DNA of 64,000 nt. Source: a virus. The notes beneath the pieces are model-generated. The model saw nothing but the letters and a program-made list of their open reading frames with translations, had not been told where the DNA came from and searched no databases. Below are positions 6,243 to 32,972 of this stretch, in pieces; the stretch's first letter is position 1, and each line of letters begins with the position of its first letter. A program made the position numbers and the translations under genes. Location: positions 29,826 through 93,825 of the IMG/VR virus record IMGVR_UViG_3300031772_000007. One strand, given 5' to 3'.

Positions 6243-6269
6243 GCGTTCCTCCCCTGCGAAGCCGCAGTT

Positions 6270-6691: not shown

Positions 6692-6701
6692 GGCGTTCTC
6701 C

Positions 6702-7904: not shown

Positions 7905-7906
7905 CG

Positions 7907-8565: not shown

Positions 8566-8567
8566 AA

Positions 8568-9424: not shown

Positions 9425-9443
9425 GTCCCTCTCCTTGGAAAGC

Positions 9444-9473
9444 TACTTTGCCCGGGGCTTACCCGGTTGTCCC
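9444..9473 (-). promoter_or_regulatory. Putative phage-sigma promoter GGGAYAAYCG-N10-GGGCAAAGTA
   Basis: Same bipartite motif and spacing at 33543, 37841 and 53236. Confidence 0.65.
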
Positions 9474-9486
9474 CTTCGGTGTCCAA

Positions 9487-10286: not shown

Positions 10287-10636
10287 ACCACGAACCTTGC
10301 CCCGAGGCGCTTCCGCTGTCCCGTCAGCCGTGCAACCGTCTCCGCAGCCTGAAGGCACTGCCTTCCCACCGCGAACGCTTCCTTCACCGTCAGGCAGGAC
10401 TGCTCCCACCTGACGTGGACGCTTGTGGCTGTCTTCTCGAACACCCGGACAAACCACAGGTGCGAAAGCAATGGCTCCAGCATCTTCTGCACAACCACGT
10501 GATGACGGTCGGTGGTGAGCCCCCGCCACCAAAGCACGTAGAACTCCTTGCAGTACGAAACCGTAACCTCCCCCCAGTAGCACTGGCGGTCGGGAATGCC
10601 CCGCCCGTGGACCGGATCCAGCGGAACTCGCTGCAT
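10283..10636 (-). CDS. Small orphan, RLxG-tag family (ETVARLTG)
   Basis: TGATG coupling; motif. Confidence 0.65.
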   Translation of the reverse strand: MQRVPLDPVHGRGIPDRQCYWGEVTVSYCKEFYVLWWRGLTTDRHHVVVQKMLEPLLSHLWFVRVFEKTATSVHVRWEQSCLTVKEAFAVGRQCLQAAETVARLTGQRKRLGARFVV

Positions 10637-10731
10637 CACGCCCCCAACCGAAGTGCCGCGTCCTCGATTGCCAGCCACACGAGCGCCACCGCCGCCCAGG
10701 CTGCCCAGAACGCTGCTTCGAGGTGGCTCAC
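10636..10731 (-). CDS. 31-aa membrane micro-protein MSHLEAAFWAAWAAVALVWLAIEDAALRLGA
   Basis: Read directly; translationally coupled at both ends; TM helix plus motif. Confidence 0.6.
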   Translation of the reverse strand: MSHLEAAFWAAWAAVALVWLAIEDAALRLGA

Positions 10732-10844
10732 GTTCCCCCCGGGGCTCCCACCTTCACGTCGTAGTCCTTCCTGTAGAAGTCAACCCACTTGACCCCGTTG
10801 GGGACGTACACTCCTCGTGCTCGCATGATGTCGTGCAGGCGCAT
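10728..10844 (-). CDS. 38-aa hypothetical peptide (MRLHDIMRARGV...)
   Basis: GGGGAGGAG RBS; fills the gap after terL. Confidence 0.5.
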   Translation of the reverse strand: MRLHDIMRARGVYVPNGVKWVDFYRKDYDVKVGAPGGT

Positions 10845-10892
10845 GTCTCTCTCCTCCCCAGAACCTTGCCCGCCGCGCCGCCGGTTGTCCCG

Positions 10893-18323: not shown

Positions 18324-18624
18324 CTCCCAGCCGGTAGGTGGATTCCCACCGGGCCATGATTTCCTCTGCGTCGTAGAGCGCCTGCACCAACGTCGGACGC
18401 CAGCGCCCCGTCTCCAGTTGGGACGCCCTCTGGTACTGGAGCATCCCCTGTGGCGTCCGTCGCGTCTCCTGCATCTCCACCGAGGCGAACCAGCCCCCGG
18501 CTCCCTTCCGCAGCCATCCCGTCATGCACCTTTCCTCGGGAGCCAACCTGACCACCCTCACGTAGCTGCCACGGGATATGCTCCATCCCTTCTCGGTGAG
18601 TCCCGTGCCTTCCTCGTCCGTCAC
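18295..18624 (-). CDS. Small orphan, RLxG-tag family (ESTYRLGG)
   Basis: C-terminal motif in register. Confidence 0.65.
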   Translation of the reverse strand: MTDEEGTGLTEKGWSISRGSYVRVVRLAPEERCMTGWLRKGAGGWFASVEMQETRRTPQGMLQYQRASQLETGRWRPTLVQALYDAEEIMARWESTYRLGGGLEDREDS

Positions 18625-19154
18625 GGGCCACTCCCGAACGTCTCGTAGCGCCGTGGCGCGCAGATGATGCAGCCCCGCGGCGTCAGTTGCTCGGTGGGGA
18701 CCTCCGCGCCACAGTTGGGGCACCGGGACAGTTCCGCGTACAGCTTCACCTTCCCCGCTCCCGAGATGTTGACCCCCGACTGCTCGACCACCCGCTGCGC
18801 CGGAGATTCCTCCCCGGTGAGCCGCGCCGCCGCGTCGTTCACGATGAACTGCCCCACGTCGTAGTACGTCTCGCCGGGGCTCACCTTCGTCCCATCAGCC
18901 AACTCCGCCAAGACGATGCTGTTGTCCGGCTTGAACATCCACGCCTTCGAGCCGCCCGCCGGGAACTGCGCGATGTGCTTCAGCAGGCTCTCCCCCTGCA
19001 CCCACCGGACCTCGCCACTTCGCACCAGCACGTCGAGCCCGCCCCGCGTCATCTTCAGGTCCCGCCAGATGTCCGTGTACGTGCGCCACTGGCGGTCGGC
19101 GTCCCCCGGCTGGAGGACGTACTCGCTCGACCCGACGTAGCCCCAGCGGTTCAT
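18621..19154 (-). CDS. Xis/wHTH-like plus Zn-ribbon protein with tag (DAAARLTG)
   Basis: WRTYTDIWRDLKMTRGGLDVLVRSGEVR; CPNC...CIIC. Confidence 0.6.
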   Translation of the reverse strand: MNRWGYVGSSEYVLQPGDADRQWRTYTDIWRDLKMTRGGLDVLVRSGEVRWVQGESLLKHIAQFPAGGSKAWMFKPDNSIVLAELADGTKVSPGETYYDVGQFIVNDAAARLTGEESPAQRVVEQSGVNISGAGKVKLYAELSRCPNCGAEVPTEQLTPRGCIICAPRRYETFGSGP

Positions 19155-19387
19155 AGCTCCAGAGTTACCTCCAGCACGTCGTACAACCTGCTCCCGAGTG
19201 CCCTGATGGTTTCCAAGTCGCCGTCCACCACGAGAAGCGCCTGCGCTCGTATCGGCTTCCCCGCCAGGACGCGCTCCGCCTTCATCGCCATGATCGCCTG
19301 CGCGCACTGCGTCAGAGATTCCGCAAGGCACTCGCCCGTCTCATCCACCACCGTTGCAACCGGCGTTGCCTTCGCTCGGAGCTTCAT
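19151..19387 (-). CDS. Hypothetical protein
   Basis: Coupled ORF. Confidence 0.55.
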   Translation of the reverse strand: MKLRAKATPVATVVDETGECLAESLTQCAQAIMAMKAERVLAGKPIRAQALLVVDGDLETIRALGSRLYDVLEVTLEL

Positions 19388-19881
19388 AGGTGCCTCGGCT
19401 TCGGCGGTCGGGGCTCCCTCCCCTGAAGACGGTCCACCGATTCCCGAGAGGCCAACTCCATGCGCTTCGCCTCGTAGGCGTCGGCCAGCACCTTGCGACA
19501 GACCGGGTCCGCTACCCTGTAGACGTGCTCCCCCGCGGGGAACAGCTTGCCGAAGCGCCAAAGCTGCCCGTACTCCTCCACGAAGCCCGACCCGGCGAAG
19601 CGCTTCGTCTGCTCGAAGATGCCGAGCTGTAGGAGAGTCCGCTGGATGCGCCATCGGGCGGATCTGCCCTCCCGCGCCCCCGTCACCGGGATGAAGAACT
19701 CGTCAGGCTCCACCTTCTCGTCCACGAGGTTCACCGTCAGCTTGTCCAGCGCCTCCCCCGCGTCGGTGGTGACGTAGAGCGCCCCGTTCCCGTTGCTGTA
19801 ACGCCCCCCGTGAAGAACACAGGGATCCTCATCGAGATAGAAGCGGAACCCGTCCGCCGCCTTGAAGGGGTCCACCCTCAC
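19384..19881 (-). CDS. Hypothetical protein with C-terminal tag (ESVDRLQG)
   Basis: GTGA coupling; motif. Confidence 0.6.
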   Translation of the reverse strand: MRVDPFKAADGFRFYLDEDPCVLHGGRYSNGNGALYVTTDAGEALDKLTVNLVDEKVEPDEFFIPVTGAREGRSARWRIQRTLLQLGIFEQTKRFAGSGFVEEYGQLWRFGKLFPAGEHVYRVADPVCRKVLADAYEAKRMELASRESVDRLQGREPRPPKPRHL

Positions 19882-20372
19882 CGCCCGCCCCCGTACCAGA
19901 TAACGAGGACGCTCGGGAAGCTGGCGGAGTCCCGCTTCACTCCCTCGGGGTTCCCGGGGCACCCGAAGGTGATGCGCCCTGGGAGGAACCGCGTCGTCAC
20001 CGAATTCCACGGCTTGTCCCGCGAGTGCTCGATGTGCTCCTGCCACCACTTCCTGTCCGTCCAGCTCGGGAGCAACGCGACCACCAGACAGCAGTGCGCC
20101 ACAATCTCCTTCCGCGCCTTCTCCAGCCACGCCCCGATGTTGGAATAGGGCGGATTGAGGAACACCCGCGCACCCCTCCACGACTGGCGGAGCCCGTTCT
20201 TCTTCTTGGTGAAGTACCGGCGGCACTTCGCGCTCTCCCTGGAAGCGCACGGGTCCAGGGTGAAGTGGAACTCCGCGTCGAGCTTCTTGTAGAACTCCGT
20301 CGGCGTGAACTGATCGTCGAGCGACTTGGTAGGCGGAGCGTTCCGGCAGGCGTCCTCCGGCAGCCACCCCAT
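19878..20372 (-). CDS. Phage DNA N6-adenine methyltransferase (Dam-like)
   Basis: DQFTP, FTLDPCAS, GLRQSW, VFLNPPYS; start uncertain. Confidence 0.9.
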   Translation of the reverse strand: MGWLPEDACRNAPPTKSLDDQFTPTEFYKKLDAEFHFTLDPCASRESAKCRRYFTKKKNGLRQSWRGARVFLNPPYSNIGAWLEKARKEIVAHCCLVVALLPSWTDRKWWQEHIEHSRDKPWNSVTTRFLPGRITFGCPGNPEGVKRDSASFPSVLVIWYGGGR

Positions 20373-20388
20373 CTGCCCCGTCTCCGGG

Positions 20389-20607
20389 TCAACCGTCAAA
20401 GCCAAGCTGACGCGCCGCTTCGAGCGCAACCGCTTCTTCAACGTCCGCCGCTTCGTAACAGGCATAGAATTTCCCATCGCGTTTCCTCGCCGCGCAGATA
20501 GCTGCCCCGCCCCGCCGCCGGGCAAGAGCGCCCAGCGCCAGGGCCAACGTCTCCTCGTCGATGTCGTACATGATGGAGGCTTCCAAGAGGGTGAGCAGCT
20601 TCTTCAC
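20389..20607 (-). CDS. Small wHTH-like protein ending EAARQLGF
   Basis: GTG start; KLLTLLEAS... pattern; tag variant. Confidence 0.5.
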   Translation of the reverse strand: MKKLLTLLEASIMYDIDEETLALALGALARRRGGAAICAARKRDGKFYACYEAADVEEAVALEAARQLGFDG

Positions 20608-20632
20608 CTGGAAACCTTGCCCGGACGCAGGC

Positions 20633-22042
20633 TCATTTTCCCTTCGGCAGCTCCGCGCCACCCGGAAGGGCTCCGGCCATCTGCCGCCCGAACTCCTCCA
20701 ACCCACTCGCCGCAACCCCGAACTTCTCTAGCTCCGTGCGGGTTTCGTACAGTCCCCGCTTGTAGTCGAAGAAGTAGACGAGGTCGTTGTTGGAGTCCAC
20801 CGCCGCCGGAACGAGAACCCGGTCGAAGAAGTTGTAGACCCCCATCGCGCTCTTGGTCGGGATGTTCCACGCCCCGCGCACCCGGTCGAAGACCGACTCC
20901 TGCCGGAGCTTCCGCATCAGGCGGTCCTTCCCGCGCACCCCGTCGTCCTGCAACGGGTCCAACGTCACCCGCGCGTCACCGCTAATGTCCGCGAAGCGCA
21001 CGCTGCCCCGTCGGAAGGCGATTCGGATGGCCTCGGTGAATGTACCCCGCGTCACCTGCCCGCCCTCCAAGTCCTCCGGGGAAAGCCCACAGCAAGTGGA
21101 GGCGTTGGTCAGCTCCTTGTAGTCAGGGTCCGAGCAAGCGAACCGCACCCCGCGCTTCTCGCACTCCTCCCACATCCCGTAGACGTAAGGCTTCTTCCAG
21201 TGCCGCGACAGGCGAGGCTGCCCGCGAGCGTGCCGAGACATCGCCTTGTAGATGGCCGTGAAGTCGAAGTCCGCCGCCTTGCCCATCCGGTCGAAGTACC
21301 GCCTGGAGAACTCGAAGTCCGGGAAGGGGATGCACAGAAACTCGGTGGACAGCGCCTTCGCTCCGGCGTCCGCCGCCGCCGTCAACAGCTCCCGCCAGGT
21401 TCCGGTCGAGATGCCGGGGCAGAAGGGGCGGAAGCGCAGAATCGTCCTGATTCCCCGCTTCGACAGCGCCTCCACCGTTTTGATGCGGTCCTGCGGGCTC
21501 GGGGCGCTGACCTCGATCTTCCGCGCGATCTCCGGGTCGTAGGTGATGATGCTCGACTGGAAGCCCCATCTGCCCGCGTTCGCCGCGAACACCTCCAGAA
21601 GCTCCTCGTCCTGCCAGAACGCGCCCTTCGAGCTGAAAAGCACGGGCCATTTGATGTCGGTGAGGAAGCGGAGAACTTCCAGCGTCTTCTCTCGGTACTT
21701 CCCGAGCGCGTAGTGATCGAAGGCGTCCGCCAGCCCGCCCCAGTGGAGGATGAGATGCTGGTCAACAAACGCCTGCCGGTGCGCCTTCTGGTCCTTCGAC
21801 AAGTCCTCGGGCGCTCCCTGGAACAACCGCCTGAACCGGGGGATGTTGATGAACGACAGGTCCGGCAGCCCGCCGTAGTCCTGATCGTCCTCGCCGTGCG
21901 GAACGCGCGAGCTGTCCTTGATGGGTCCGGCAAAGCAGTAGAGGCACCCGTAGCTGCACCGGCTGATGGCGTCGAACGTGAAGGGCAGCCCGCACTCGTA
22001 ATACTCGCTGGAGAGGCGCGGGGAGTTGTAGCAATCAGCCAC
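20633..22042 (-). CDS. Radical SAM enzyme (SPL-like) of the DNA-modification cluster
   Basis: CSYGCLYC; adjacent to ParB, kinase and transferase genes. Confidence 0.85.
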   Translation of the reverse strand: MADCYNSPRLSSEYYECGLPFTFDAISRCSYGCLYCFAGPIKDSSRVPHGEDDQDYGGLPDLSFINIPRFRRLFQGAPEDLSKDQKAHRQAFVDQHLILHWGGLADAFDHYALGKYREKTLEVLRFLTDIKWPVLFSSKGAFWQDEELLEVFAANAGRWGFQSSIITYDPEIARKIEVSAPSPQDRIKTVEALSKRGIRTILRFRPFCPGISTGTWRELLTAAADAGAKALSTEFLCIPFPDFEFSRRYFDRMGKAADFDFTAIYKAMSRHARGQPRLSRHWKKPYVYGMWEECEKRGVRFACSDPDYKELTNASTCCGLSPEDLEGGQVTRGTFTEAIRIAFRRGSVRFADISGDARVTLDPLQDDGVRGKDRLMRKLRQESVFDRVRGAWNIPTKSAMGVYNFFDRVLVPAAVDSNNDLVYFFDYKRGLYETRTELEKFGVAASGLEEFGRQMAGALPGGAELPKGK

Positions 22043-22682
22043 CGAGCACCACCCGCGCGAGCGCGCTGCCATCCAAGGTGGGCTCCTTCGCCGCCGCGTT
22101 GTCCAGCCGGTACTTCCCCAGCACCTCCAGCGCCGCCGTCGCCGTCGGGAAGACGACCGGAACGTTCAGCGGATCCGGGGCTGCCTCGGGCTCCGCTGGC
22201 GACAACCCCGCGCCCACCGCCTCCTCGACCCGCCCGAGCGATGTCTTGAGCACTTCGATCTCATCCGCAGAGAAGCCCGTCACCCCCTGGAACCACTTGC
22301 CGTCGTCCCCGTTCTCCGCCAGCCACGAGCTGACGTAGGAGGACAGAGCTTGCTGGTCCCAATCCGCGCTGATCTGATTCAGCGCGAGGACGAGAGCCCT
22401 CGCCTTCTGGTCGTCGGGGAGGTCCACGACAACAACCTCCGCCTTGGGCAGCCCAGCTTCCTTCATCACGTCGTAACGGTGGTGCCCGTTGATGATCTCG
22501 TAGCGGTCCGGCGCTCCCGGGGATTCCCGAACGATGATGGGCTGCACCACCCCCAGCTCCTCCATCGAGGTACGCAGGTGCGCCCGCATCGCATCGCCCA
22601 TGACCCTCGGGTTGCCGAACTTGAACGGGTCCAGGCTCGACACCGGGACCGTCTTCAACGCCTTCAGCCGTGACTGAATCAT
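22035..22682 (-). CDS. ParB/Srx-domain protein
   Basis: NPR, GVVQPIIVR, YEIINGHHRY. Confidence 0.85.
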   Translation of the reverse strand: MIQSRLKALKTVPVSSLDPFKFGNPRVMGDAMRAHLRTSMEELGVVQPIIVRESPGAPDRYEIINGHHRYDVMKEAGLPKAEVVVVDLPDDQKARALVLALNQISADWDQQALSSYVSSWLAENGDDGKWFQGVTGFSADEIEVLKTSLGRVEEAVGAGLSPAEPEAAPDPLNVPVVFPTATAALEVLGKYRLDNAAAKEPTLDGSALARVVLGG

Positions 22683-23371
22683 TGCCCCTCCAGGAACTTC
22701 GCCAGAGCCCCGCCGTCGATGGCGTCCGCCCTCAGAGTCCCGAAGCGGGTGCCCAGCCTGAACTTCCCCAGCACCGCGTCCGCCTCCTCCCGGGTGGCGA
22801 ACTGCGCCTTCAACACCTTCGGCTGGTTCGCGGCGACAGCCTCCTCCGCCATCTTCGCCACGAGATCGCTCGGGTCCTTCTCCGGTGCCTCCGAGAGCTG
22901 TTGATTCGTGGCGTCGATGGTCCCCGCCGACAGCACCTCGATCTCGTCCCCCGAGAAGCCTGTTACCCCCTTGAACCACTCCCCGCCCGCCGTGTTGTCG
23001 TTGAGCCACGCCGAGACGTAGTTCGACAGCGCGCTGTAATCCCACTCCGCGCCGATCTGGTTCAGGGCCAGCACGAGCGCCCGTGCCTTCCGGTCGTCCG
23101 GCAGGTCCACCACCACCGCCTCGATCTCCGTCGCCCCCGAGTCCTTCAGCACCCCGTAGCGATGGTGCCCGTTCAGAATCTCGTAGCGCCCCTTCGTCCG
23201 GGGGCTCGGTCGGACGACGATGGGCTCCACCACCCCCATCTCGGTGAGAGACTGCTTCAGCGTCTCCGTCATCCGGTCCGTCATCTTGCGCGGGTTCCCG
23301 AACGCGAACGGGTCCACCGCGCCGATGGCGATGCGCTTCAACGCCTTCAGCTTCGACTCGATGTTGCTCAT
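22679..23371 (-). CDS. ParB/Srx-domain protein (tandem paralog)
   Basis: NPR, GVVEPIVVR, YEILNGHHRY. Confidence 0.85.
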   Translation of the reverse strand: MSNIESKLKALKRIAIGAVDPFAFGNPRKMTDRMTETLKQSLTEMGVVEPIVVRPSPRTKGRYEILNGHHRYGVLKDSGATEIEAVVVDLPDDRKARALVLALNQIGAEWDYSALSNYVSAWLNDNTAGGEWFKGVTGFSGDEIEVLSAGTIDATNQQLSEAPEKDPSDLVAKMAEEAVAANQPKVLKAQFATREEADAVLGKFRLGTRFGTLRADAIDGGALAKFLEGQ

Positions 23372-23910
23372 GTCCCCTCCTGCCTCAGAAACTCCCTGAG
23401 CGACCGCTCCAGAACCTCGGGCACTCGCCGGGCATCCAGCTCGACCCTATCCCCTTCCGGGAAGGTTTCCCAGAAACGGCGAGACTTCGTCTCCCGCCCC
23501 TTCACCCACGAGGCGTTCTGCTTGCTCCCACGGGTGTCCCTGCGCGCCTGCGCCTCCTCCGGTGGGAGCGTCAACAGCGCGCACACCAGCCGGATGTTCG
23601 GGGCGTAGGGCAGCGAACGGAAGAAGCTCACCGGGAGCGCGTTGCTGAACCTGTCCCCGTCGAACAGCGTCAGCTCCGCGCGCATCGCCAGGTGCGTCGT
23701 CCAGAAGTTCAGCGCCTCCGCCGCCCCGTTGTAGGGCACGGTGTCCGCCCCATCGAACGGCCCGCCCGCGTAGTGCCCCGCGGCAACGATGCGCTGCCCG
23801 ATGGTCCACTTCGGCTTCGGGTTGAGGCGACTGAGCGGTTCGAGGAGCCTCCGCGCCAGCGTCGTCTTGCCCACCCCCGGCGTCCCCACCAACCAAAGTA
23901 CGGTCTTCAC
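23368..23910 (-). CDS. P-loop kinase, putative 5-hmdU DNA kinase
   Basis: GTPGVGKTT; GHY...FDGADTV; FDGDRF; next to transferase. Confidence 0.75.
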   Translation of the reverse strand: MKTVLWLVGTPGVGKTTLARRLLEPLSRLNPKPKWTIGQRIVAAGHYAGGPFDGADTVPYNGAAEALNFWTTHLAMRAELTLFDGDRFSNALPVSFFRSLPYAPNIRLVCALLTLPPEEAQARRDTRGSKQNASWVKGRETKSRRFWETFPEGDRVELDARRVPEVLERSLREFLRQEGT

Positions 23911-25037
23911 TTCTGCGCCCTCCTCACCTCATCGTTGAAGTCGTTGGCAAAGCAGCCCCACTCCTTGTCCATCATGATCACCTGTCCGGTCAGCCGGTAG
24001 TGGTTCATCTTGCGAGGACAGAGCCCCGGGTCCTTGGGGTTGTCCTCCAGCCGCAGGTGCTCCGGCAGGCATTCCTTCCGCGCGTCCCAGAACAGATGCA
24101 ACCGTTCCCCCCATGCCTCCTCGGTCTTCTTCAGCCGGAGGTAGAGCATGTCGTTGTAGACGTTCGGGTAGCGTCGGTTGACCCGGTGCCAGCCCTTGTA
24201 CGTACAGAGGGTGCTCTCCATCGTGAAGTAGCCCACGTCCCGGTAGAAGCTCTCCCCCGCCGCGCGGACCTTCATCTCCTCCAACAGCTCCGCCGCCTCC
24301 TTCTCCAGCCAGCGCAGGACCGCGGGGCTGTAGGTGCCGTCAAAGCTCGTATTGTCGTCGTGCCAGTCCAGGTCGTCCCGGCCCAACACCTTGCAGAGCC
24401 CATTCCGGTGACTCTTGCTGCCCTGCATGTCGTCGAGAAAGAGCTGATCGCAGTCGATCCTCACCCCGTTGATGCGTAGGTACTCCGCGTAGCTGAACGA
24501 ACTCAACCGCCCGAAGTAGACGAAGAAGGTGTTGATCGCCTGCCAGAGCTGTCGGAAGTTGGTGCGCTCGTCCGCCGGGGTCAGCCGATTGAAGAACTCC
24601 TCTTGCGAGCGCCCGCCCAACAGCGTGACGTAGTTCTGAACGCAGGTGAGGAACTTGGTCTTAAAGTACCGCCGGTCGGTGTCGAACTCCAACCGCGTGT
24701 AGTTCTCCGCGAACCACCGCTTCATCCGGTCGAAGTCCACCCCCACGAGAGGGAATTCCCGGAAGATGAGCCAGCTCGTCGGCGGGTGCTGCGTGTTCCC
24801 GTTGATGAAGGCGAACCACAGCCGTTGCTCCGTGCTCCACCCCAGCCGGTCTGCCAGGTAGGGAAGAACGTAATACACCCCCCCTGGATGAGAACGGTAG
24901 CGAAGGTGAAACTCCCAGAACCGAAGGAAGACCTCCCGGCGGTAGCGGGACTCACGGAAGTCCGTGCCCACGCGGAGCGCCGTCTCCTCTGTCTGCCTGT
25001 GGAGGGCGCAGTAGCGCCCCGGTTCCGCCGTCTTCAT
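23907..25037 (-). CDS. Amino acid:DNA transferase (aGPT-Pplase, HhH-glycosylase fold)
   Basis: FGRLSSFSYAEYL, ESTLCTYK, YPNVY; flanked by kinase and PLP enzyme. Confidence 0.75.
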   Translation of the reverse strand: MKTAEPGRYCALHRQTEETALRVGTDFRESRYRREVFLRFWEFHLRYRSHPGGVYYVLPYLADRLGWSTEQRLWFAFINGNTQHPPTSWLIFREFPLVGVDFDRMKRWFAENYTRLEFDTDRRYFKTKFLTCVQNYVTLLGGRSQEEFFNRLTPADERTNFRQLWQAINTFFVYFGRLSSFSYAEYLRINGVRIDCDQLFLDDMQGSKSHRNGLCKVLGRDDLDWHDDNTSFDGTYSPAVLRWLEKEAAELLEEMKVRAAGESFYRDVGYFTMESTLCTYKGWHRVNRRYPNVYNDMLYLRLKKTEEAWGERLHLFWDARKECLPEHLRLEDNPKDPGLCPRKMNHYRLTGQVIMMDKEWGCFANDFNDEVRRAQK

Positions 25038-26077
25038 GGTTCCCCCAAGGCTCCTCGCATCGCGGCGAGCGTCGGGCGCGACCCGACAATCCAGAACAGC
25101 GCCTTCCCGCTCCCCCAGAAGTGGACGAACTCCTTGGCGTGCTTCCGCAGGTACGTCATCACCTTGCCCTCGTAGGTGGGGTGGAAGTCGATGCCGCCGT
25201 AGGTGAAGGGCATCTCGTCCTGATAGCTGGCGAAGTGCGTCGCATGCAAGTCGTAGTGAACCAGCCGGTAGGGAGCGCGCTTCGTCGGTTGGAAGCTCGC
25301 CGCCTGATCCGGGTCGTTCTTGTAGTCCCGGTTGAACAACGCCCGAATCTGGATGCCCGAGAACTGCTCGATGGCGCGAAGCCGGTCCTCAATCCAGACC
25401 AGCTTCGTCGGCCCTACTCCAAACAGGACGACCTCCCGAAGCCGCGGGGGCAGCCTGCGCGCGATGCCGTACAGCACCGAGACACAGCTATTGCAGCTCC
25501 CCGCGGGCATGTAGATGGCCTCCACGTCATCCGGGATGTTGAGAACCTGCTCGCTTCCGAGTCGGTGGAAGGCGTCAATCTCCGCAGGGTCGTCGTCCAC
25601 CGTGATGCCGTACTTCAAGACGTAGTGCCCGGGGTGCTCCTTAGCCAGCTCCGCCACCGCCCGTTGCAGCGCCGGATTGTAGGCCACCGGGTTGTACCTA
25701 AAGCGGGCTCCGAGCGCCCGAGCGATGGCGACGTTCTCATGCTTCCCCGCCGCCTTTTCCGTCGTCGCACCGATGACCAACAGCGTCTCCAACCCAAAGT
25801 GCCGAGCAACCGCGGTGCCCATGCAGAGTTGCGGGCTCTTGACGCTCGCCCCGGAGAGCAACCCCTTCGCCCCCGCCGCCGCTGCCCGGCTCACAAGCCA
25901 GATGCACTGGCGGAGCTTCGCCCCGTTGATGCCTCCGTACCCGAGAGGCGCGAAGCGGTCCTCCCGCTTGAACCGGATCGCCCCCATTTCCTCCACCGGG
26001 GTCCGGGTAAGCAGGTGCTTCTCCCACCGCGACTGCTCCCGGTCCAAGCTCAACGTGTCGAAGACGGACCCTCTCAC
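25034..26077 (-). CDS. PLP-dependent enzyme (fold II, ACC-deaminase-like), putative DNA amino-acid decarboxylase
   Basis: FKRED...GGINGAKLRQ, PAGSCNS, PTYEGK. Confidence 0.8.
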   Translation of the reverse strand: MRGSVFDTLSLDREQSRWEKHLLTRTPVEEMGAIRFKREDRFAPLGYGGINGAKLRQCIWLVSRAAAAGAKGLLSGASVKSPQLCMGTAVARHFGLETLLVIGATTEKAAGKHENVAIARALGARFRYNPVAYNPALQRAVAELAKEHPGHYVLKYGITVDDDPAEIDAFHRLGSEQVLNIPDDVEAIYMPAGSCNSCVSVLYGIARRLPPRLREVVLFGVGPTKLVWIEDRLRAIEQFSGIQIRALFNRDYKNDPDQAASFQPTKRAPYRLVHYDLHATHFASYQDEMPFTYGGIDFHPTYEGKVMTYLRKHAKEFVHFWGSGKALFWIVGSRPTLAAMRGALGEP

Positions 26078-26346
26078 TTTCGCAGCTCCGCGTCGCGCAC
26101 TCCACGAACCCCCAAGGACAGCAACGCCCTCCACACCTTCATCCTGCCCCACCGCTCCTCGTTGGTGATGGCGTACCAGGCACCCCCACGGGGACCGAGG
26201 GGCTTGTAGGTGATCGCCCCGATGGAGAGCCCCTTCTTGATCATCGTGTACGAGAGACAGGGAACGTCATACCACTCCTGCGCGGGGCGGTAGTTCCCCA
26301 CCCCGAACTGCTTCAGAATGGCGTCGAAGTCGGGCTCGTACTCCAT
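26074..26346 (-). CDS. Hypothetical protein
   Basis: Coupled ORF. Confidence 0.55.
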   Translation of the reverse strand: MEYEPDFDAILKQFGVGNYRPAQEWYDVPCLSYTMIKKGLSIGAITYKPLGPRGGAWYAITNEERWGRMKVWRALLSLGVRGVRDAELRK

Positions 26347-27962
26347 CAGGCCACTTCCACCCGTCCTTCAGCCACCTTCCACCGCTGCACGCACGGAACC
26401 CGCGCCGCCAGCTCCTCGTTGTGCGTGATGATGACGACCGCTCGTTCCCGGGCCAGATCGTCGAGCACACCCACAACCGCCTCGATTCCAGCCGAGTCGA
26501 GCCCGTCCAGAATTTCGTCAAGGAACAGGGTTCCCCGCCCCGCGAAGGCAAGAAGTAGGGCCAGGTCTATCCTCCTCCGCTCCCCCGCAGAAGTGGCCTT
26601 GTAGCCGTAGCCACCGCCAGCTCCCTGCACCTGCAAACTGATGGCGTCCGACACCCCGCCAGTCTTCTTCTCGGAGTACGGCTTCAGCTCCAGCTTGAGC
26701 CCCTTCCCCGCGAGCCGCGGGAGCCAGGCGTTCGCCGCCGCCTCCAGCCCCCCAAGCAGCTTCGCCAGGATGCCAGCCCGCGCCCCGCGGAGCCCCAACA
26801 CCATCTCCGCCGCCTTCAACACCTCAACCTCGTGCTCCTGCTTCGCCCGCGCTGCTTCCGCCTTGGCGATGTTGTCGGCGCAGACCTCCTCCGCCTTAGC
26901 CGCCAGCACCCGTACCTTCTCGGTGTTCGCCCTGAGAGCCGCCGAACGTTCGATGTTCCCCAGCTCCGCGTCGAGCGCCGTGGCCTTCTCCCGGAGCTTG
27001 CGGAGGGCTTCCTGTACGTCCCGCGCCTCGTCCCGGGTGTCCGACACCGCCTCGTTCGCCTGCGCCTGCTCTGCGCGGGTGTCGGTCTGAATCTTCTGGA
27101 TCTGCTCCTTCAGCCCCTTCCGCAGTTCCTCCGGCACAGCCTGCCCGCAAGAGTCGCAGATGCCTGACTCCCCCAGCCGGTTGAGCCGCCGGGTCAACGC
27201 CGCCAGCTCCCGCTCCGCGCCGCCCGTGTTGACGCTGTGCTTGGCGATCTCGTCTTGGAGCGACGCCAGCTCGGTGTCCCCCTTCCTGATGTGCTCCCGT
27301 AGGTGGTCCCGCCGCTGCTTCAGCGCCCCCACCGCTTCCTCGGTCCCCATCGGCATCCCCGCGAGCGCCTGCTTCGCATCTTGCTGCCGCTGCCGCGCGT
27401 GCTCGATCTCCACCTCCGCTATGCGCTTTCGGTTCGCCGCGTCACCCAACTCCCGCTCCGCGGTGTGGAGCTGCGCCCGGCATTTCTCCAGCGCGGCATC
27501 AAAGCGACCAAGCCCCAACATCGACTCCAAGAACAGCTTGCGCTCCTTGTCGGTGGCCTGCGTGAAGTGCGCCGCGTCCGCCGAGCTGAAGACGTGAGTG
27601 CGCCTCCAAATCTCGAACGAGCCGATGATCTCCTCCAGCGCCTCCTGCGCCTTGGTCGTCGTCTCGTAGTCGCGCCCCTTCCCTTCGTAGGTGAAGGTCA
27701 GCGCGGTCTTGGCTCCCTTGCGCTCCCGCCGAGCCACCAGAGCCCCCGCGGTGAACTCCGCAAAGCCCTTCAGCGAGTCGATGGCGAACGGGAGGACGCC
27801 CCGAAGCGTCTCACCCCATCCTGGGTACGCCACCCCCTCGATGATGCTCGACTTGCCCGAGCCATTCGGCCCCACAACCAAAACAACTCCTCTCTTGGGA
27901 AAGGCCAGCTCCGTCTTCTCGTGCGTCGTGAAATTCACCAGCTTGAGTGTCCCGAGATCCAT
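26346..27962 (-). CDS. SbcC/Rad50/gp46-like ATPase
   Basis: GPNGSGKS, coiled coil with CDSC hook, SAGERRR signature, FLDE, ITH. Confidence 0.92.
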   Translation of the reverse strand: MDLGTLKLVNFTTHEKTELAFPKRGVVLVVGPNGSGKSSIIEGVAYPGWGETLRGVLPFAIDSLKGFAEFTAGALVARRERKGAKTALTFTYEGKGRDYETTTKAQEALEEIIGSFEIWRRTHVFSSADAAHFTQATDKERKLFLESMLGLGRFDAALEKCRAQLHTAERELGDAANRKRIAEVEIEHARQRQQDAKQALAGMPMGTEEAVGALKQRRDHLREHIRKGDTELASLQDEIAKHSVNTGGAERELAALTRRLNRLGESGICDSCGQAVPEELRKGLKEQIQKIQTDTRAEQAQANEAVSDTRDEARDVQEALRKLREKATALDAELGNIERSAALRANTEKVRVLAAKAEEVCADNIAKAEAARAKQEHEVEVLKAAEMVLGLRGARAGILAKLLGGLEAAANAWLPRLAGKGLKLELKPYSEKKTGGVSDAISLQVQGAGGGYGYKATSAGERRRIDLALLLAFAGRGTLFLDEILDGLDSAGIEAVVGVLDDLARERAVVIITHNEELAARVPCVQRWKVAEGRVEVA

Positions 27963-28175: not shown

Positions 28176-28399
28176 GGCCGGTCCCACCCCACTCGCTTGC
28201 TCGCTGCCGCCGGGTTGTCCGCGGGACCTCCCAGCCGTTCCGTCGCATCCATCGCCTGCTCCTTCTCGCGCATCCGCTTCAGGTAGTAGTCCCCGACCCC
28301 GCCTTGAAAGAGGGGATCTCCCATCGGCGCGAACCTCCAGCGCCGAAGCAGCTCCTCGTAGGAAGCGTTATCGATCCACTGCTTCGTCGCGGCATCCAT
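28172..28399 (-). CDS. Small protein with tag (DATERLGG)
   Basis: RBS; motif near C-terminus. Confidence 0.65.
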   Translation of the reverse strand: MDAATKQWIDNASYEELLRRWRFAPMGDPLFQGGVGDYYLKRMREKEQAMDATERLGGPADNPAAASKRVGWDRP

Positions 28400-29057
28400 C
28401 GTTCCAGACCTCCTCCTCCACCGGGGGTGCCGGTGGGAAGCCCTCCCTCTGAATCCAGATCAGCTTGAAGCCCTGCTCCCGAAGCCGCCCCAGCAACTTC
28501 GAGTAGGCGTGCTCCGCGTAAATCCACCAGACCTTCGCCTCCGGCCACCAGCCCGTGCGGACCAGAGACTCCTTCGCCGGGGTGTGCCCCCAGATGGCGT
28601 TGAACTGCTCCTTGAGCCTGTCCTTCATGTCGAAGTGCGTGCGGAAGGCCAGCGCCAGCCCCGGACACGAACGGTCCGGGACGAACGCCCAGAAGGCGTA
28701 GGCGGTCCGCTTCAACGGCTTCACGAAGGGAAGGTCCGCAGGGCTGTCCTCCGCCCCGAGCGCGACAGCCCCCACCCGCGCGCTGTTCTCCTGCGCGTGG
28801 TCCAGCACCGCCCGGTAGATGCGCTCCATCAGCCTGCGCGCTTCTCGGTGCTCCAGGGGTTGCGCCAGCTCCAGGTACACCGTGTACGCGCTCTTGCCCG
28901 CCGCCGGGTAGTTCGTCCCCGCCGCGCACACCGCGCCACCAGGAAGACCATCGACCTTCAGCGCGTACATCGGAACCCCAAGCTCCCAGCGAGCGATGCG
29001 CTTCTCCCTCGGGTCCTTGCGATTCCCGCGCGGGATGTCGCCGATGTCGTAAGGCAT
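28368..29057 (-). CDS. Hypothetical protein
   Basis: GGAG RBS; 229 aa. Confidence 0.6.
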   Translation of the reverse strand: MPYDIGDIPRGNRKDPREKRIARWELGVPMYALKVDGLPGGAVCAAGTNYPAAGKSAYTVYLELAQPLEHREARRLMERIYRAVLDHAQENSARVGAVALGAEDSPADLPFVKPLKRTAYAFWAFVPDRSCPGLALAFRTHFDMKDRLKEQFNAIWGHTPAKESLVRTGWWPEAKVWWIYAEHAYSKLLGRLREQGFKLIWIQREGFPPAPPVEEEVWNDGCRDEAVDR

Positions 29058-29062
29058 GGCTC

Positions 29063-29701
29063 CTACCCCGCCCGGTGCTCACGAGCCGCCGCCACCGCTG
29101 CGTTGATCTGCGCCGCCGTCTCCTCCTGCGTCCCCCGGGCGTTCACCACCACCCATCGAGTGGGCTCCACCGCACGCTGCCGGTCCCACAGCTCCCGATA
29201 GAACCCAGCCACTTGCGGCATGAAGCTCGCCGCCTTCTCGTAACGGTCCCGGCGGTCCGGTCGGCGCTCCGCAGAGTCCTTCTCGTCCACGTCGAGCAGG
29301 ATGAACAAGTCCGGCTGCGGGAGCCATCGGTGCAACCCGATCAGGTAATCCCCGTCGAGCCCGTCCGCCCGCCCGTAGGCATAGCCGCTCGGCCAGTAGC
29401 GATCCAGCACCACGTTCCCGCGAGATGCCACCTCGAACAGCTCGGTGGCGACCTCCATCCGATTGGCGACCTGGAGAGCCTGAAACACGAGAGGGTCCAG
29501 CAGATTTCCGTACTGCGCCGACCACTCCCCCAATTTCGCCGGTTGCGCCCGCCAAAGCCTATCGAGGTGCGCGTAGATGAGCTTCCCAGTGATGGTTTCC
29601 TTGTTCGGGAACTTCCAGACCCGCGCGCCCATGCGCTTCGCCAGCAGCTCGGTGTGCGTCCCCTTGCCGCAGGCGTCGATGCCCTCAAGACAGATGATCA
29701 C
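29063..29701 (-). CDS. tmk: Thymidylate (dTMP) kinase
   Basis: LEGIDACGKGT, VLDRYWPSGYAY, PQPDL. Confidence 0.92.
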   Translation of the reverse strand: MIICLEGIDACGKGTHTELLAKRMGARVWKFPNKETITGKLIYAHLDRLWRAQPAKLGEWSAQYGNLLDPLVFQALQVANRMEVATELFEVASRGNVVLDRYWPSGYAYGRADGLDGDYLIGLHRWLPQPDLFILLDVDEKDSAERRPDRRDRYEKAASFMPQVAGFYRELWDRQRAVEPTRWVVVNARGTQEETAAQINAAVAAAREHRAG

Positions 29702-29718
29702 CTTCCCACCCTCCCCCT

Positions 29719-30033
29719 CTACGAGCGAAGCTCGCGTAAGTCGAATACCCCTGCCAAGTCCTTCTCCTGCTTCATGATGAGGCGCGCGTACCGGCTCGGG
29801 TAGTTGTTGCACAGCTTGAACTCGCTGCCGTCGTCGGTCGTCTCCAACCACACGTTCCAGCGCAAGACCTCCCAGAGCATCTTGATACCGACCTTCCTCT
29901 TGCCCTTGCACACCGCCGCCCGGGCGAGCCTCACCAGCTCGTCGTAGACGTTTGGGTTCTCCCCGTGGAACTTCAGGAACGATCTCTGGATCTTCGAGGT
30001 GGGCTCCTCGAACAGTGGCAGTTGCGTCGTCAT
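29719..30033 (-). CDS. Phage protein with N-terminal QLPLF (clamp-binding-like) motif
   Basis: MTTQLPLF; FHGENPNVY...EVLRW...NNYPSRYAR. Confidence 0.65.
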   Translation of the reverse strand: MTTQLPLFEEPTSKIQRSFLKFHGENPNVYDELVRLARAAVCKGKRKVGIKMLWEVLRWNVWLETTDDGSEFKLCNNYPSRYARLIMKQEKDLAGVFDLRELRS

Positions 30034-31139
30034 GCCGCCCCCCCAAGTAGCTGCGTCACCCGCTCCTTGACCTCTGGGCGCAGAGCCTCGTTCTCCAGGG
30101 GCATCTGCGCGATGTAGTCGGACACCGCCTGCTCCGCCGTCTCCGCACTCCGCGTCACCCCCGCCGCCGTCCGCAGAGCCACCTCCGCCTCGGTCGTGTC
30201 CGGCACCACCTCGCCCACCACCCCCAACCGCTCCGCCAGCGCCTCCAGCTTCCCCTGCGCCGCCGCCACCGCCGTCGGCGTTCCGTCTGCCTTCAGCCGG
30301 AGGAACAGCTTGCACCCCTCGGGTGCCTTCAACACCTCCTCCTCGGTGGTGACGAACCGCGGACCGGAGATGGCCTTCTTCGTCCAGTTCCCCCTCTTGG
30401 AGTCCCAAACGAGAATGGTCCCGTATCCCTCCAACCCCGGGTTGCGCCAGTCGGTCGGCACGAGCGCCCCGATCTGCACGAGGTCCACCCCCTGCACCCC
30501 GTCGTGCCCCGACCAGCTCCGGTGAGGGTGCCAGTGCCCCGCCACCACCAGAGCGATGCCCAAAGAGGAACACTGCCCCGCTACGCTGTCCAGCGTCACC
30601 GCGTCCGAGGAACCCTTCAACCAAGGTGGCGTCGCCCCGTCTTGAAGACCAAGGTGTAGCGCAAGAACTCTCGGCGTAGGAGCCCCGTCCGTCGTGCCCC
30701 GAAGATCGTTCACAACCCGCGGGAGCCAGTCCTCCGCCTTCCCCGTGCGAAACGGAACCGCCCAGACCTCCCCGCCATCGACGTAGTACCGAAGCGGCTG
30801 GTCGAGAACGTGCGCCACCGGCACCAACGGTCCCAGTGCGTTGTCCCCCTCGGCGTCGCTCGTCATGTCGTGATTGCCCGAGAGGATGTACGTCGTCACC
30901 TTCTCCGCGTACCGGGCGATGATCTCCTGCACCGCCCGGATGACCTGCGGCTCGGGACGGGAGGAGTCGAACAGGTCCCCGCAGATGAACAGCGCGCCGC
31001 AGTCCTTGCTGATCTCCTCGTAGGCGCGCTTCAGGGCATCGAGCGTTAGGCGGCAACGGTCGTTGATGCCCGCCTTCGTCTGCCCGCCGTAGAGCTTCGA
31101 GTTCCCGATGTGACAGTCCGCTATGAAGGCAACGCGCAT
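30030..31139 (-). CDS. SbcD/Mre11/gp47-like nuclease
   Basis: ADCH, GDLFD, GNHD, GHWH. Confidence 0.9.
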   Translation of the reverse strand: MRVAFIADCHIGNSKLYGGQTKAGINDRCRLTLDALKRAYEEISKDCGALFICGDLFDSSRPEPQVIRAVQEIIARYAEKVTTYILSGNHDMTSDAEGDNALGPLVPVAHVLDQPLRYYVDGGEVWAVPFRTGKAEDWLPRVVNDLRGTTDGAPTPRVLALHLGLQDGATPPWLKGSSDAVTLDSVAGQCSSLGIALVVAGHWHPHRSWSGHDGVQGVDLVQIGALVPTDWRNPGLEGYGTILVWDSKRGNWTKKAISGPRFVTTEEEVLKAPEGCKLFLRLKADGTPTAVAAAQGKLEALAERLGVVGEVVPDTTEAEVALRTAAGVTRSAETAEQAVSDYIAQMPLENEALRPEVKERVTQLLGGAA

Positions 31140-32116
31140 GGTTCCTTCTCCTTCTTGCCGGTGATCTTCCCTTCCATCACCGAGTCCTCCCCCTTCGGAT
31201 CGGTGTCCGCCCACCCCAGCGCCTTCAGAGCCTCGGCGTGCCCCTTGTCGGTCGCCTTCGTACCCGCAGGTATCAGCTCGCGGTCCTTGGCGTGGTTCAC
31301 CGTCGTCCAGCGGTCGTCCCACCCGCCCGCAACATGGAGGCGAGTGTCCAACTCGTGCTGCGCCTCCGCCACCTTGTTCTTCACGCACTTCATGTGAACC
31401 CCGATGAAGCTCCCATCCCTCTTGTCCGGGCGCATCCTCACGCGGACCGAGGAGTAGAACTTGATGGCGTTGCCCCCGGGGGTCGTCTCCGGGTTCCCGT
31501 AGACCACCCCGATCTTCATCCGTGTCTGGTTCACGAACATCATGTGCGCCCGCTTCTTCGGAAGGATCTTCACGAGGTACGTGCAGAGCTTCGAGTAGAA
31601 CCTTGCCCGGATGCCCATGTATTCGTCTCCGGGGTCGCCCTCCAGCTCCTCCCTCGTTGGCAGAGCAGGTACCGAGTCGAGAACGATGAGCGTCGGAGGT
31701 CCATCGTCCGGCAACGACTTCAAGAACTGGATGAGCATGTTGCCTCCTTCCTGGAGATTCGGCGGGTCCAGCGCCAGCACCTCGTCCGGATCCACCCCGA
31801 AGGTCCGCGCCCGCGTCTCCGTGAAGGCGTGCTCCGCGTCGATGAGCGCGAAGATGCCCTTCATCTTCTGCACCGCCGCCCCTGCCGAAGCGACCAGACT
31901 GCTCTTGCCCGAGGACTCCGGCCCGAACCACTCGCTCATTCGACCGATGGGGAGCCCACCGACCCCGAGCAGGTGATGGTCCACCGCCACAATGCCTGTG
32001 GGGATGGCCTCCTTCACGTCCGCGCCGCCGCCCCCCGAGAGGGTTGCGATGGAGCCCGCCCCATACTTCTTCTCGATGCCCGCCTGAATCTTCGCCAGCA
32101 GTTGCAGCCTGTCCAT
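31121..32116 (-). CDS. recA: RecA/UvsX recombinase
   Basis: GPESSGKS, IDAEHA, NQTRMKIGVVYGNPETTPGGNAIKFYSSVR. Confidence 0.95.
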   Translation of the reverse strand: MDRLQLLAKIQAGIEKKYGAGSIATLSGGGGADVKEAIPTGIVAVDHHLLGVGGLPIGRMSEWFGPESSGKSSLVASAGAAVQKMKGIFALIDAEHAFTETRARTFGVDPDEVLALDPPNLQEGGNMLIQFLKSLPDDGPPTLIVLDSVPALPTREELEGDPGDEYMGIRARFYSKLCTYLVKILPKKRAHMMFVNQTRMKIGVVYGNPETTPGGNAIKFYSSVRVRMRPDKRDGSFIGVHMKCVKNKVAEAQHELDTRLHVAGGWDDRWTTVNHAKDRELIPAGTKATDKGHAEALKALGWADTDPKGEDSVMEGKITGKKEKEPCALPS

Positions 32117-32186
32117 GCGCTCCCCTCCGGTGGAAAAACCGGAGATCGGCCAGCTTCGACCGATCTCCGGTACTACCCCCCTGCAC

Positions 32187-32972
32187 CTAGTAGTCGAAGT
32201 CCCCACCAGCCTCGCCGGACTTCGCCTTCCCACCACCCCGCGGCGTCACATCCTTCTCTCGCCGCTTCCCGCCGCCCGTCTTGTCCTCCCACTCGCCCTC
32301 CAGAGCCGCATCCTGATCCTCATCCGAGGGCGGTCCCTCCACCGCTTCCAGGTCCATCTGCGTCGGCATCAACTCCACCGCGCCCGGCAACGGCGACGGC
32401 TGCCGCGCCACCGCCACAGGGTCGTACTCGGTGTCGTTCGGTCCGGTCCCAGTGCGGTTGAACACGATGTTGTAGCCGCTCTGCGGATCGGTGAACACCT
32501 TGCCCACCTCGGCGATGTCGATGGCCTTGCGGACCTTCTTGAACAACCCCTGCGGAATGGTCCAGAGCTGAACCCCCTTCTCCGGGTTCTGCATGTCCAC
32601 GATGTTCGCGTAGACGTGCGCGCTCGGCTCGAACGCCCGAGCCTTCTTCAAGTCCAGCTTGTTCCCCGAAGACCGGAGCCGAGCTGCCCGCTCGCAGATG
32701 GGGCAATGCTCGTTATACTGGTACTTGACGCAGACGATGTTCTTCTTCTCCCCGCCCGCGGAGAAGAAGTGCTTGTACCAGATTTTCACCGGGGGCTTGC
32801 CCGCGATGGGGGGCATGAACCGGACGACGTTCTTGCCCTCCTTGGGCTTGAAGAAGTTGCCACCGCCCGCGGGGAGAGCCTTCTCCGCCTCCTCCATCAT
32901 CGTGAGGTCGAACTCCCCGTACTGCACCATGCCCTGCTGTCCTACCTTCTCGATCTCATTGCCAGTTGCCAT
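32187..32972 (-). CDS. Single-stranded DNA-binding protein (gp32-like)
   Basis: NVVRFMPP, CPIC, TDPQSGY, acidic tail ending DFDY. Confidence 0.8.
   Translation of the reverse strand: MATGNEIEKVGQQGMVQYGEFDLTMMEEAEKALPAGGGNFFKPKEGKNVVRFMPPIAGKPPVKIWYKHFFSAGGEKKNIVCVKYQYNEHCPICERAARLRSSGNKLDLKKARAFEPSAHVYANIVDMQNPEKGVQLWTIPQGLFKKVRKAIDIAEVGKVFTDPQSGYNIVFNRTGTGPNDTEYDPVAVARQPSPLPGAVELMPTQMDLEAVEGPPSDEDQDAALEGEWEDKTGGGKRREKDVTPRGGGKAKSGEAGGDFDY

Follow-up and report, generated by a model that had tools for sequence, protein, structure and literature searches.

The window analysed here, a stretch of 64,000 nucleotides, comprises bases 29826-93825 of the 93,825-bp IMG/VR virus record IMGVR_UViG_3300031772_000007, whose completeness is given as 100% by CheckV. 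The GC content is 66% and the minus strand holds nearly all genes. At the locus of interest, genes for an SbcC-like protein, a short open reading frame (ORF) named orf90, a pyridoxal 5′-phosphate (PLP) enzyme, an amino acid:DNA transferase of the ADDT family, a P-loop kinase, two ParB proteins (ParB1 and ParB2) and a radical S-adenosylmethionine (SAM) protein, designated rSAM-A, follow each other in this order on the minus strand (Table 1). Every junction in this series is formed by overlapping stop and start codons, namely TGATG, GTGA, ATGA, GTGA, ATGA and ATGA in order, followed by an 8-nt overlap at GTG 22042; the PLP gene starts with GTG 26077, which overlaps the orf90 stop. The downstream gene for a Dam-type methyltransferase is uncoupled, with about 150 nt between the rSAM-A stop and the likely Dam start ATG 20480. 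No match was obtained for orf90 in Pfam, PHROG or NCBIfam.

Table 1. Features of the modification locus and of other parts of the window (positions count from the first letter of the window)
Feature	Position	Strand	Basis or remark
orf90, 90 codons, between the SbcC-like and PLP genes	26074-26346	-	stop/start overlaps on both sides
PLP enzyme (fold type II, PALP)	25034-26077 (ORF to 26152)	-	Pfam PALP, E 2.3e-7
ADDT (formerly aGPT-Pplase2)	23907-25037	-	PF18724, 78.3 bits (cut-off 26.2)
P-loop kinase, predicted 5-hydroxymethyl-2′-deoxyuridine (5-hmdU) DNA kinase	23368-23910	-	phrog_800, E 3.9e-9
ParB1 (ParB/KorB/Noc-like)	22679-23371	-	PF02195 (ParB_N), 46.7 bits
ParB2, tandem paralog	22035-22682	-	PF02195 (ParB_N), 47.3 bits
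rSAM-A, spore photoproduct lyase (SPL)-like radical SAM protein	20633-22042 (ORF to 22072)	-	CxxxCxxC motif and fold
Dam-type N6-adenine DNA methyltransferase	19878-20480 (ORF to 20525)	-	PF05869, 91.8 bits (cut-off 28.1)
Second radical SAM protein, 499 amino acids	16824-18323	-	phrog_16999
SbcC/Rad50-like ATPase	26346-27962	-	coupled to the head of the operon
dTMP kinase	ORF 29063-30046		
Region with SbcD/Mre11-like phosphoesterase, dTMP kinase and RecA	30030-32236	-	just upstream of the SbcC-like gene and the operon
Family A DNA polymerase, 1225 amino acids	33582-37259	-	N-terminal uracil-DNA glycosylase (UDG) domain, 3′-5′ exonuclease, intein with HNH endonuclease
Third ParB_N protein, 216 amino acids	45607-46257	-	pair with sigma-70 region 2 gene, 45607-46805
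DUF2201 metallopeptidase/VWA protein and MoxR-like AAA_5 ATPase	48623-51298	-	conserved pair
tRNA-Met (CAT)	55114-55185	-	sole tRNA gene

For the comparison with known pathways, sequences of Pseudomonas phage M6, Salmonella phage ViI and the mycobacteriophages Lolalove and Vincenzo were fetched and compared by PHROG, Pfam and BLAST. In ViI, 5-(2-aminoethoxy)methyl-2′-deoxyuridine (5-NeOmdU) is formed by the kinase gp243, the serine:DNA transferase gp247 and the PLP decarboxylase gp226, and an isomerase is not needed (PMC8989533). The PLP enzyme of the locus is 38% identical to gp226 (blastp, E 8.8e-87) over residues 29-371 of 372, about 92% of its length, and falls in phrog_3650 (326 bits), which is common to hundreds of ViI-like phages. 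By tblastn 347 matching records were found, all with at least 80% coverage, and 346 of them were Ackermannviridae-type phages or Vibrio-phage relatives. An ACC-deaminase-like region surrounds the PLP lysine, and the product is predicted to be a decarboxylase of an amino acid attached to thymine. M6 gp52 (phrog_7093) gave no BLAST match to this enzyme. The ADDT passes the profile of its family (Table 1), falls in phrog_3271 (277 bits) and is closest to gp3 of Coopervirus (46% identity), with 30% identity to ViI gp247 (E 9.5e-28), a member of the same family in Pfam. M6 gp51 (phrog_6364) gave no significant BLAST match to the ADDT (best E 5.9), and nothing useful was found among PDB sequences. 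The kinase shares its PHROG with M6 gp54 and Coopervirus gp4 and is 28% identical to the latter (E 1.3e-10). Its score against the Pfam model Ploopntkinase3 (23.6 bits) is under the cut-off of 27, no match to PF18748 was found in Pfam, and BLAST gave no match to ViI gp243 or M6 gp54. The Dam-type enzyme was additionally assigned to phrog_111 (150 bits).

A preliminary description of the locus had proposed a cluster for thymidine hypermodification, six contiguous and coupled genes followed by Dam, with an enzyme logic as in M6 and ViI. All seven genes, Dam included, were recovered with Pfam, and the presence of an ADDT, a 5-HMUDK-like kinase and a PLP enzyme agrees with thymidine hypermodification. 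The proposed membership of the transferase in the aGPT-Pplase/ADDT family was likewise borne out, and an amine-bearing form of thymine can reasonably be expected from kinase, ADDT and PLP enzyme. The coupling extends from the SbcC-like gene through rSAM-A and does not include Dam. As for the likeness to M6, it holds for the kinase through the shared phrog_800 and breaks down for the PLP enzyme and ADDT, which belong to other PHROGs than gp52 and gp51, and for rSAM-A, which is not in phrog_9252, the PHROG of gp53-type isomerases. Since the PLP enzyme and ADDT are of ViI/Coopervirus type and their M6 counterparts unmatched, the downstream chemistry looks ViI-like and not M6-like.

Characterised pathways of this kind begin with 5-hmdU, for which two sources are described: a thymidylate synthase (TS) homolog that acts ahead of replication, and a TET/JBP dioxygenase that acts on DNA (PMC8989533, PMC13229309). 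Profile searches of the complete 94-kb genome with PF00303, PF12851, PF02511, PF00692, PF00383 and PF00145 returned 0 matches at E<=1, so that no Thymidylat_synt, Thy1 (ThyX), Tet_JBP, dUTPase, dCMP deaminase or C5 DNA methylase was detected by these searches. When all ORFs of at least 50 codons were searched with tblastn and phmmer --max, the best E values were 0.74 for the M6 TS homolog gp58 and 0.39 for the Coopervirus TET/JBP. As positive controls, TET_JBP was found in Coopervirus phage Lolalove (E 5e-8) and TS in M6 (E 5.5e-20). Unannotated ORFs flanking the cluster (18621-19331 and 28368-29057) held nothing dioxygenase-like and gave no informative match in the ESM Atlas. Moreover, neither TS nor TET/JBP was found in any of 47 further viral records that encode rSAM-A; 30 of these records are at least 90% complete.

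The rSAM-A protein has 469 amino acids when read from GTG 22042, the same length as its database copy (P0001), and carries the cluster motif CxxxCxxC as C39/C43/C46 in the numbering of the 479-residue ORF. Outside this motif C27, C304, C327 and C328 are conserved in the family, together with many arginines and lysines. The Pfam score for radical SAM proteins (26.1 bits) is under the cut-off, and the assignment was confirmed by fold comparison. An AlphaFold (AF2) model with a predicted local distance difference test (pLDDT) score of 87.5 and a predicted template modelling score (pTM) of 0.88 had SPL as its best match in the PDB (Foldseek E 3e-6); alignment with VIA-align gave Z 18.0-18.6 and a root-mean-square deviation of 3.4-3.6 Å for 262-266 of 338-340 residues; the next radical SAM enzyme scored about 2 Z units lower. 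Relative to SPL, rSAM-A has about 160 extra C-terminal residues. The match was obtained by fold comparison only, as the family profile found none of the PDB sequences at E<=1. Where SPL has a Tyr directly after its third cluster cysteine, 28 of 30 family members have Phe; the Tyr before this cysteine is conserved between SPL and rSAM-A. At the level of the whole-fold comparison, no counterpart could be made out for Cys140, the hydrogen donor in the Cys140/Tyr98 relay of SPL. With M6 gp53, 30% identity was found over 76 residues (blastp, E 1e-4), and the PHROG matched by rSAM-A is phrog_13321 (E 2.9e-7).

Homologs of rSAM-A, which databases label 'DNA repair photolyase', are numerous. The first search gave 45, more than 535 relatives were found in IMG/VR and 83 in GTDB species genomes, and an exhaustive profile search yielded at least 402 clusters at 50% identity (E<=1e-30). 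Scans of viral and metagenome contigs with the single protein found no relatives, and alignment-based scans did. Among the bacteria that carry the family in GTDB, strict anaerobes prevail overwhelmingly; Segatella, Prevotella, Lachnospiraceae, Oscillospiraceae, Selenomonas, Victivallales and Patescibacteria are examples. A metagenome contig with 66.7% GC, whose name suggests groundwater, encodes the closest relative (52-53% identity) and, directly upstream of it, a single ParB that is 45-49% identical to ParB1. Many homologs carry an insertion of about 320 amino acids soon after the cluster motif, and intein splicing or LAGLIDADG domains were found in those scanned with Pfam; the interrupted homologs are P0041, P0046, P0048, P0051, P0056, P0081, P0087, P0090, P0095, P0105, P0127 and P0154.

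For a census of gene neighbourhoods, 158 rSAM-A loci were taken with 6 kb on either side, ORFs were called, neighbours were clustered, hidden Markov models (HMMs) were built and representatives were annotated with Pfam. The most constant neighbour was ParB, present in 139 of the 158 loci and in two copies in 55. A P-loop kinase was counted in 80, an ADDT in 45, a TET-associated glycosyltransferase (TAGT, PF20691) in 49, a GNAT protein in 34 and a SAM-synthetase-like protein in 29, and a large terminase gene was found in 100 loci, usually just downstream of rSAM-A. The branch with kinase and ADDT and the branch with TAGT co-occur in a single locus, and in 14 loci ParB is the sole counted pathway gene beside rSAM-A. 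Further neighbours identified with Pfam are an APH-like kinase and an FkbM methyltransferase. Fusions were found in the arrangements TAGT+rSAM-A, rSAM-A+TAGT, kinase+rSAM-A+TAGT (P0085) and rSAM-A+FkbM methyltransferase (P0071). The SAM-synthetase-like gene is truncated (about 280 amino acids; 3860-4702 in locus L029, and in 28 other loci) and may serve a local supply of SAM. One locus, L006, from a viral record that is only 55% complete, contains at 4251-11296 a ParB, an M6 gp52-like PLP enzyme, a gp53-like radical SAM protein, an ADDT and a kinase, then a DUF7239 protein and rSAM-A. Since L006 has both a gp53-like radical SAM protein and rSAM-A, the two types are not interchangeable, and the locus would be an M6-type pathway, apparently with a radical SAM starter to feed it. 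Among the sampled loci, a ViI-type PLP enzyme is added to the cassette in the present phage only.

ParB1 and ParB2 are 55% identical to each other. The AF2 model of ParB1 (pLDDT 84) is matched best in the PDB (E about 2e-7) by KorB, ParB and Noc, all of them CTP-binding proteins, and the HMM built for rSAM-associated ParBs gives ParB1 a score of 58 bits. A tree of the rSAM-associated ParBs pairs the two proteins as sisters (100/91) and places the lone ParB of L164, the closest relative, as their outgroup; the duplication in this phage is recent. Tandem pairs also cluster by locus in L047 (100/99), L008 (99/90) and, with weaker values, L016 (90/62), as well as in L031. As tandem ParBs group by locus in the tree, duplication arose independently several times, which suggests that selection favoured two different subunits, perhaps in a heterodimer. 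The idea that ParB1 and ParB2 are devoid of a DNA-binding domain, like ParBs associated with 5mYOX enzymes, was dropped; KorB and ParB fragments containing this domain could be aligned with the model (template modelling score about 0.5). Directly downstream of the sigma-70 region 2 gene, the phage encodes a third ParB_N protein, which with 65 bits scores highest of its three ParBs against the rSAM-associated HMM. For some phage thymine dioxygenases it has been established experimentally that a cognate ParB is needed for activity on double-stranded DNA (PMC13229309), and by analogy the ParB proteins of the present locus most likely activate rSAM-A on duplex DNA.

Three elements of the preliminary description were not supported by these results. 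It had placed 5-hmdU in the DNA as the starting base, for which a known source was not found in the genome. It had taken the radical SAM protein for an isomerase of the M6 gp53 type, and rSAM-A belongs to a different and far larger family, its similarity to gp53 being confined to the short segment given above and both types occurring side by side in L006. The ParB genes, which it had called interposed, are no incidental inserts and stand beside members of the rSAM-A family as a rule.

Together, the observed family assignments, fold, coupling, co-occurrence, fusions and missing sources of 5-hydroxymethyluracil (5-hmU) are best explained if the ParB proteins and rSAM-A oxidise thymine in DNA, after replication and without O2, and feed a ViI-like route to an aminoalkoxy base, a reading that is considered moderately probable. 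Aided by ParB1 and ParB2, rSAM-A would take a hydrogen from the C5-methyl group of thymine in double-stranded phage DNA, and the product would bear a hydroxymethyl or equivalent oxygen-containing group with its oxygen derived from water and not from O2. In such a reaction the methyl hydrogen would be abstracted by the 5′-deoxyadenosyl radical, the resulting allylic radical would give up one electron, perhaps to an auxiliary cluster on the conserved cysteines, and water would then add to the methylene intermediate. The two ParB paralogs would probably dimerise and open duplex DNA to rSAM-A, as for the ParB-dependent thymine dioxygenases. By homology to 5-HMUDK-type kinases, the P-loop kinase would phosphorylate the oxygen group, the ADDT would exchange the phosphate for an amino acid, most likely bound through an oxygen of its side chain like the serine transferred by ViI gp247, and the gp226-type PLP enzyme would decarboxylate the attached amino acid to a 5-(aminoalkoxy)methyl-uracil, for example 5-NeOmdU or a close variant, perhaps one derived from another amino acid. 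Dam would add N6-methyladenine independently. Elsewhere in the family other enzymes would phosphorylate, glycosylate or methylate the oxygen group made by rSAM-A. The modelled SPL-like fold counts in favour of this reading, since the reaction of SPL on DNA involves a radical at the methyl group of thymine. So do the overwhelmingly anaerobic carriers of the family and the fact that the nearest cultured relatives of both ADDT and kinase come from ParB–TET/JBP–ADDT–kinase cassettes. The chances are regarded as about even for the wider proposal that rSAM-A and its ParBs form an O2-independent thymine C5-methyl hydroxylase, a radical SAM counterpart of TET/JBP, which supplies 5-hmU for glycosylation or amino-acid hypermodification in phages of anoxic habitats and is coupled here to a ViI-type route, giving a 5-NeOmdU-like base without 5-hmdU synthesis at the nucleotide level.

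Several observations weigh against thymine oxidation by rSAM-A. The literature yielded no precedent for radical-SAM hydroxylation of a DNA base. The distant relationship of rSAM-A to the M6 gp53 isomerase (E 1e-4) means that it may have a tailoring role here. The genome encodes a second radical SAM protein and several unannotated ORFs, and its dTMP kinase would also fit a nucleotide-level route. A combination of rSAM-A with a PLP enzyme was encountered in this locus and L006 only, and some 7.5 kb separate the cluster from the terminase gene, which directly adjoins it in most relatives. The genome profile search with PF18724 missed the ADDT of this very genome, so false negatives are possible, and the reported absences were therefore backed by the positive controls and the local tblastn and phmmer searches. 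Finally, all catalysis in the proposed pathway, along with the amino acid and the part played by the ParBs, is predicted from sequence, fold and context.

Three other explanations were considered. An M6-like scheme, in which 5-hmdU comes from an unrecognised source (some activity of the host or a cryptic enzyme of the phage), rSAM-A tailors the amino-acid adduct as an isomerase before PLP decarboxylation and the ParBs do no more than recruit the enzymes to DNA, would account for the correspondence of gene classes with M6 gp51-54 (ADDT, PLP enzyme, radical SAM protein and kinase) and for the presence of a phage dTMP kinase; rSAM-A and gp53 are, moreover, both SPL-like, weakly similar (E 1e-4) and share a cysteine before the cluster motif. 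This scheme is nevertheless thought unlikely. No TS homolog, ThyX, TET/JBP, dUTPase or dCMP deaminase was found to provide its starting base, and an isomerase of the amino acid adduct would be left without a substrate in the 49 TAGT loci (all but one of them devoid of ADDT), in the 14 ParB-only loci and in the fusions with TAGT or kinase. In L006 a gp53-like protein is retained besides rSAM-A, and the PLP enzyme and ADDT of the present phage are of the type used in the ViI pathway, which does without an isomerase (PMC8989533).

That rSAM-A and ParB start the pathway with a product other than 5-hmU, a radical on the thymine methyl group or on another base being trapped otherwise (by phosphate, thiol or a carbon group) or another position being oxidised, is regarded as possible though rather doubtful. 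The four conserved cysteines outside the motif and the C-terminal extra region of about 160 residues would leave room for such chemistry, and some loci hold ParB and rSAM-A only. The recurrent partners are, however, all hydroxyl-acting enzymes (kinase of the 5-HMUDK PHROG, TAGT, FkbM-type methyltransferase and APH-like kinase) and mirror the partners of phage 5mYOX. It is considered very improbable that rSAM-A and ParB constitute a module for DNA repair or associated with packaging, for instance an SPL-like lyase, whose adjacency to hypermodification genes is coincidental. SPL as top structural match, the label 'DNA repair photolyase' of the homologs, the usual vicinity of the cassette to the terminase and the SbcCD-like and RecA genes nearby in this phage are what such a module would predict. 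The translational coupling of rSAM-A to the kinase, ADDT and PLP genes, the fusions to TAGT, kinase and methyltransferase and the systematic switching of partner enzymes between loci speak against coincidence, as do the replacement of the SPL Tyr after the third cysteine by Phe and the failure of the family profile to reach any PDB sequence at E<=1. Thymine oxidation by rSAM-A with its ParBs is retained as the best explanation, and the cluster is a variant of thymidine hypermodification whose first enzyme probably carries out new chemistry.

In the wider genome, no close cultured relatives of the phage were found, and no large terminase of a cultured phage exceeded 26% identity to its own. The Pfam scan covered only part of the small and structural ORFs. 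A scan for promoters and terminators between 18300 and 29300 gave a result no better than shuffled sequence. The second radical SAM gene lies 2.3 kb downstream of the cluster; its product has an N-terminal region of about 215 amino acids to which no function was assigned, gave only generic SPASM/MoaA-like matches over the cluster-binding segment, and is unrelated to rSAM-A and to M6 gp53. Upstream, the operon is headed by the SbcC/Rad50-like gene, next to the region of recombination and nucleotide genes listed in Table 1, and farther away the DUF2201 metallopeptidase/VWA gene adjoins the MoxR-like ATPase gene. The family A DNA polymerase (PolA) is a fusion with UDG. Such UDG-PolA fusions were recently described in T-modified phages, where they occur together with a TS homolog, a dCTP deaminase and an enzyme that degrades dUTP (PMC13697223); in the present genome the fusion is present, but without a TS homolog, dUTPase or dCMP-type deaminase.

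The two known routes to 5-hmU, by a TS homolog before replication and by O2-dependent TET/JBP enzymes after it, leave hypermodification genes in phages that have neither unexplained, and the dioxygenase route cannot run without oxygen. If the proposed role of rSAM-A is true, the radical SAM superfamily would gain a new reaction, the oxidation of thymine in duplex DNA, which would be only its third DNA-directed activity after SPL and M6 gp53. The function of ParB as an enzyme activator would then extend beyond the dioxygenases, and an O2-independent tool for writing 5-hmU would become available. The locus offers a test case in which the candidate starter is joined to downstream enzymes; because the ViI homologs of the latter have been characterised biochemically, mass spectrometry can tell whether the predicted end product is formed. 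Full-text literature searches, which did not cover the 2013 survey of Iyer et al., turned up no publication connecting ParB, TAGT or the opening step of thymine hypermodification with a radical SAM enzyme. New in the present case are the setting in a 94-kb phage of high GC content from outside the gut clades, a ViI-type PLP enzyme that completes the predicted pathway and the recent ParB duplication.

Among known systems, SPL (PDB 4FHC and 4FHF) has the radical SAM fold in common with rSAM-A, nearly the whole SPL chain being aligned, and implies a DNA substrate; identity is 11-13%, no match exists at the sequence level and the context of rSAM-A is biosynthetic instead of repair. The 5-(2-aminoethyl)-2′-deoxyuridine (5-NedU) pathway of M6, encoded by gp51-gp54 (PMC8989533), uses the same four classes, namely an ADDT, a PALP-fold PLP enzyme, an SPL-like radical SAM protein and a phrog_800 kinase. 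Three of the four enzymes are in other PHROGs, however, no BLAST match was found to gp51, gp52 or gp54, and the cluster motif lies at residue 125 in gp53 compared with residue 39 here. In addition, a TS homolog (gp58) and a putative dCMP deaminase (gp65) are encoded by M6, whereas ParB is not.

The cassettes of Coopervirus, Rhodococcus phage Tonitrus and 5mYOX176-ParB176 (PMC13229309, PMC11955845) likewise unite ParB, P-loop kinase and ADDT near packaging genes, and in the present phage the two ParB_N genes are adjacent and coupled to the kinase gene. The Coopervirus order ParB–TET/JBP–ADDT–kinase–terminase is mirrored by the gene order of the rSAM-A family, and the partners of 5mYOX (TAGT/glycosyltransferases, kinases, ADDT, GNAT, APH-like kinases, O-methyltransferases, ParB and terminase) match those of rSAM-A. 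The present locus differs from these cassettes in that TET/JBP is missing and the SPL-like radical SAM protein is the only candidate oxidant, in having two ParB paralogs instead of one and an added ViI-type PLP enzyme, and in that the carriers of its family are mostly anaerobes. At the left end of the Coopervirus phage Vincenzo (L162, 1-5796), a ParB-like protein of 479 amino acids, a PALP enzyme (31% identical to that of the present phage), a small ORF, a kinase of the phrog_800 type that bears the annotation of a small terminase, and the large terminase were observed with no TET/JBP or ADDT annotated, another unexplained variant of the cassette. The predicted logic of the operon, in which phosphorylation is followed by transfer of an amino acid and by decarboxylation, is the same as in ViI, and its PLP enzyme and ADDT share their PHROGs with the corresponding enzymes of ViI-like phages. 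In ViI itself, 5-hmdU is provided ahead of replication by a TS homolog, which the present phage does not have, and the genes are scattered, whereas those of the present phage form one coupled operon with ParB and rSAM-A.

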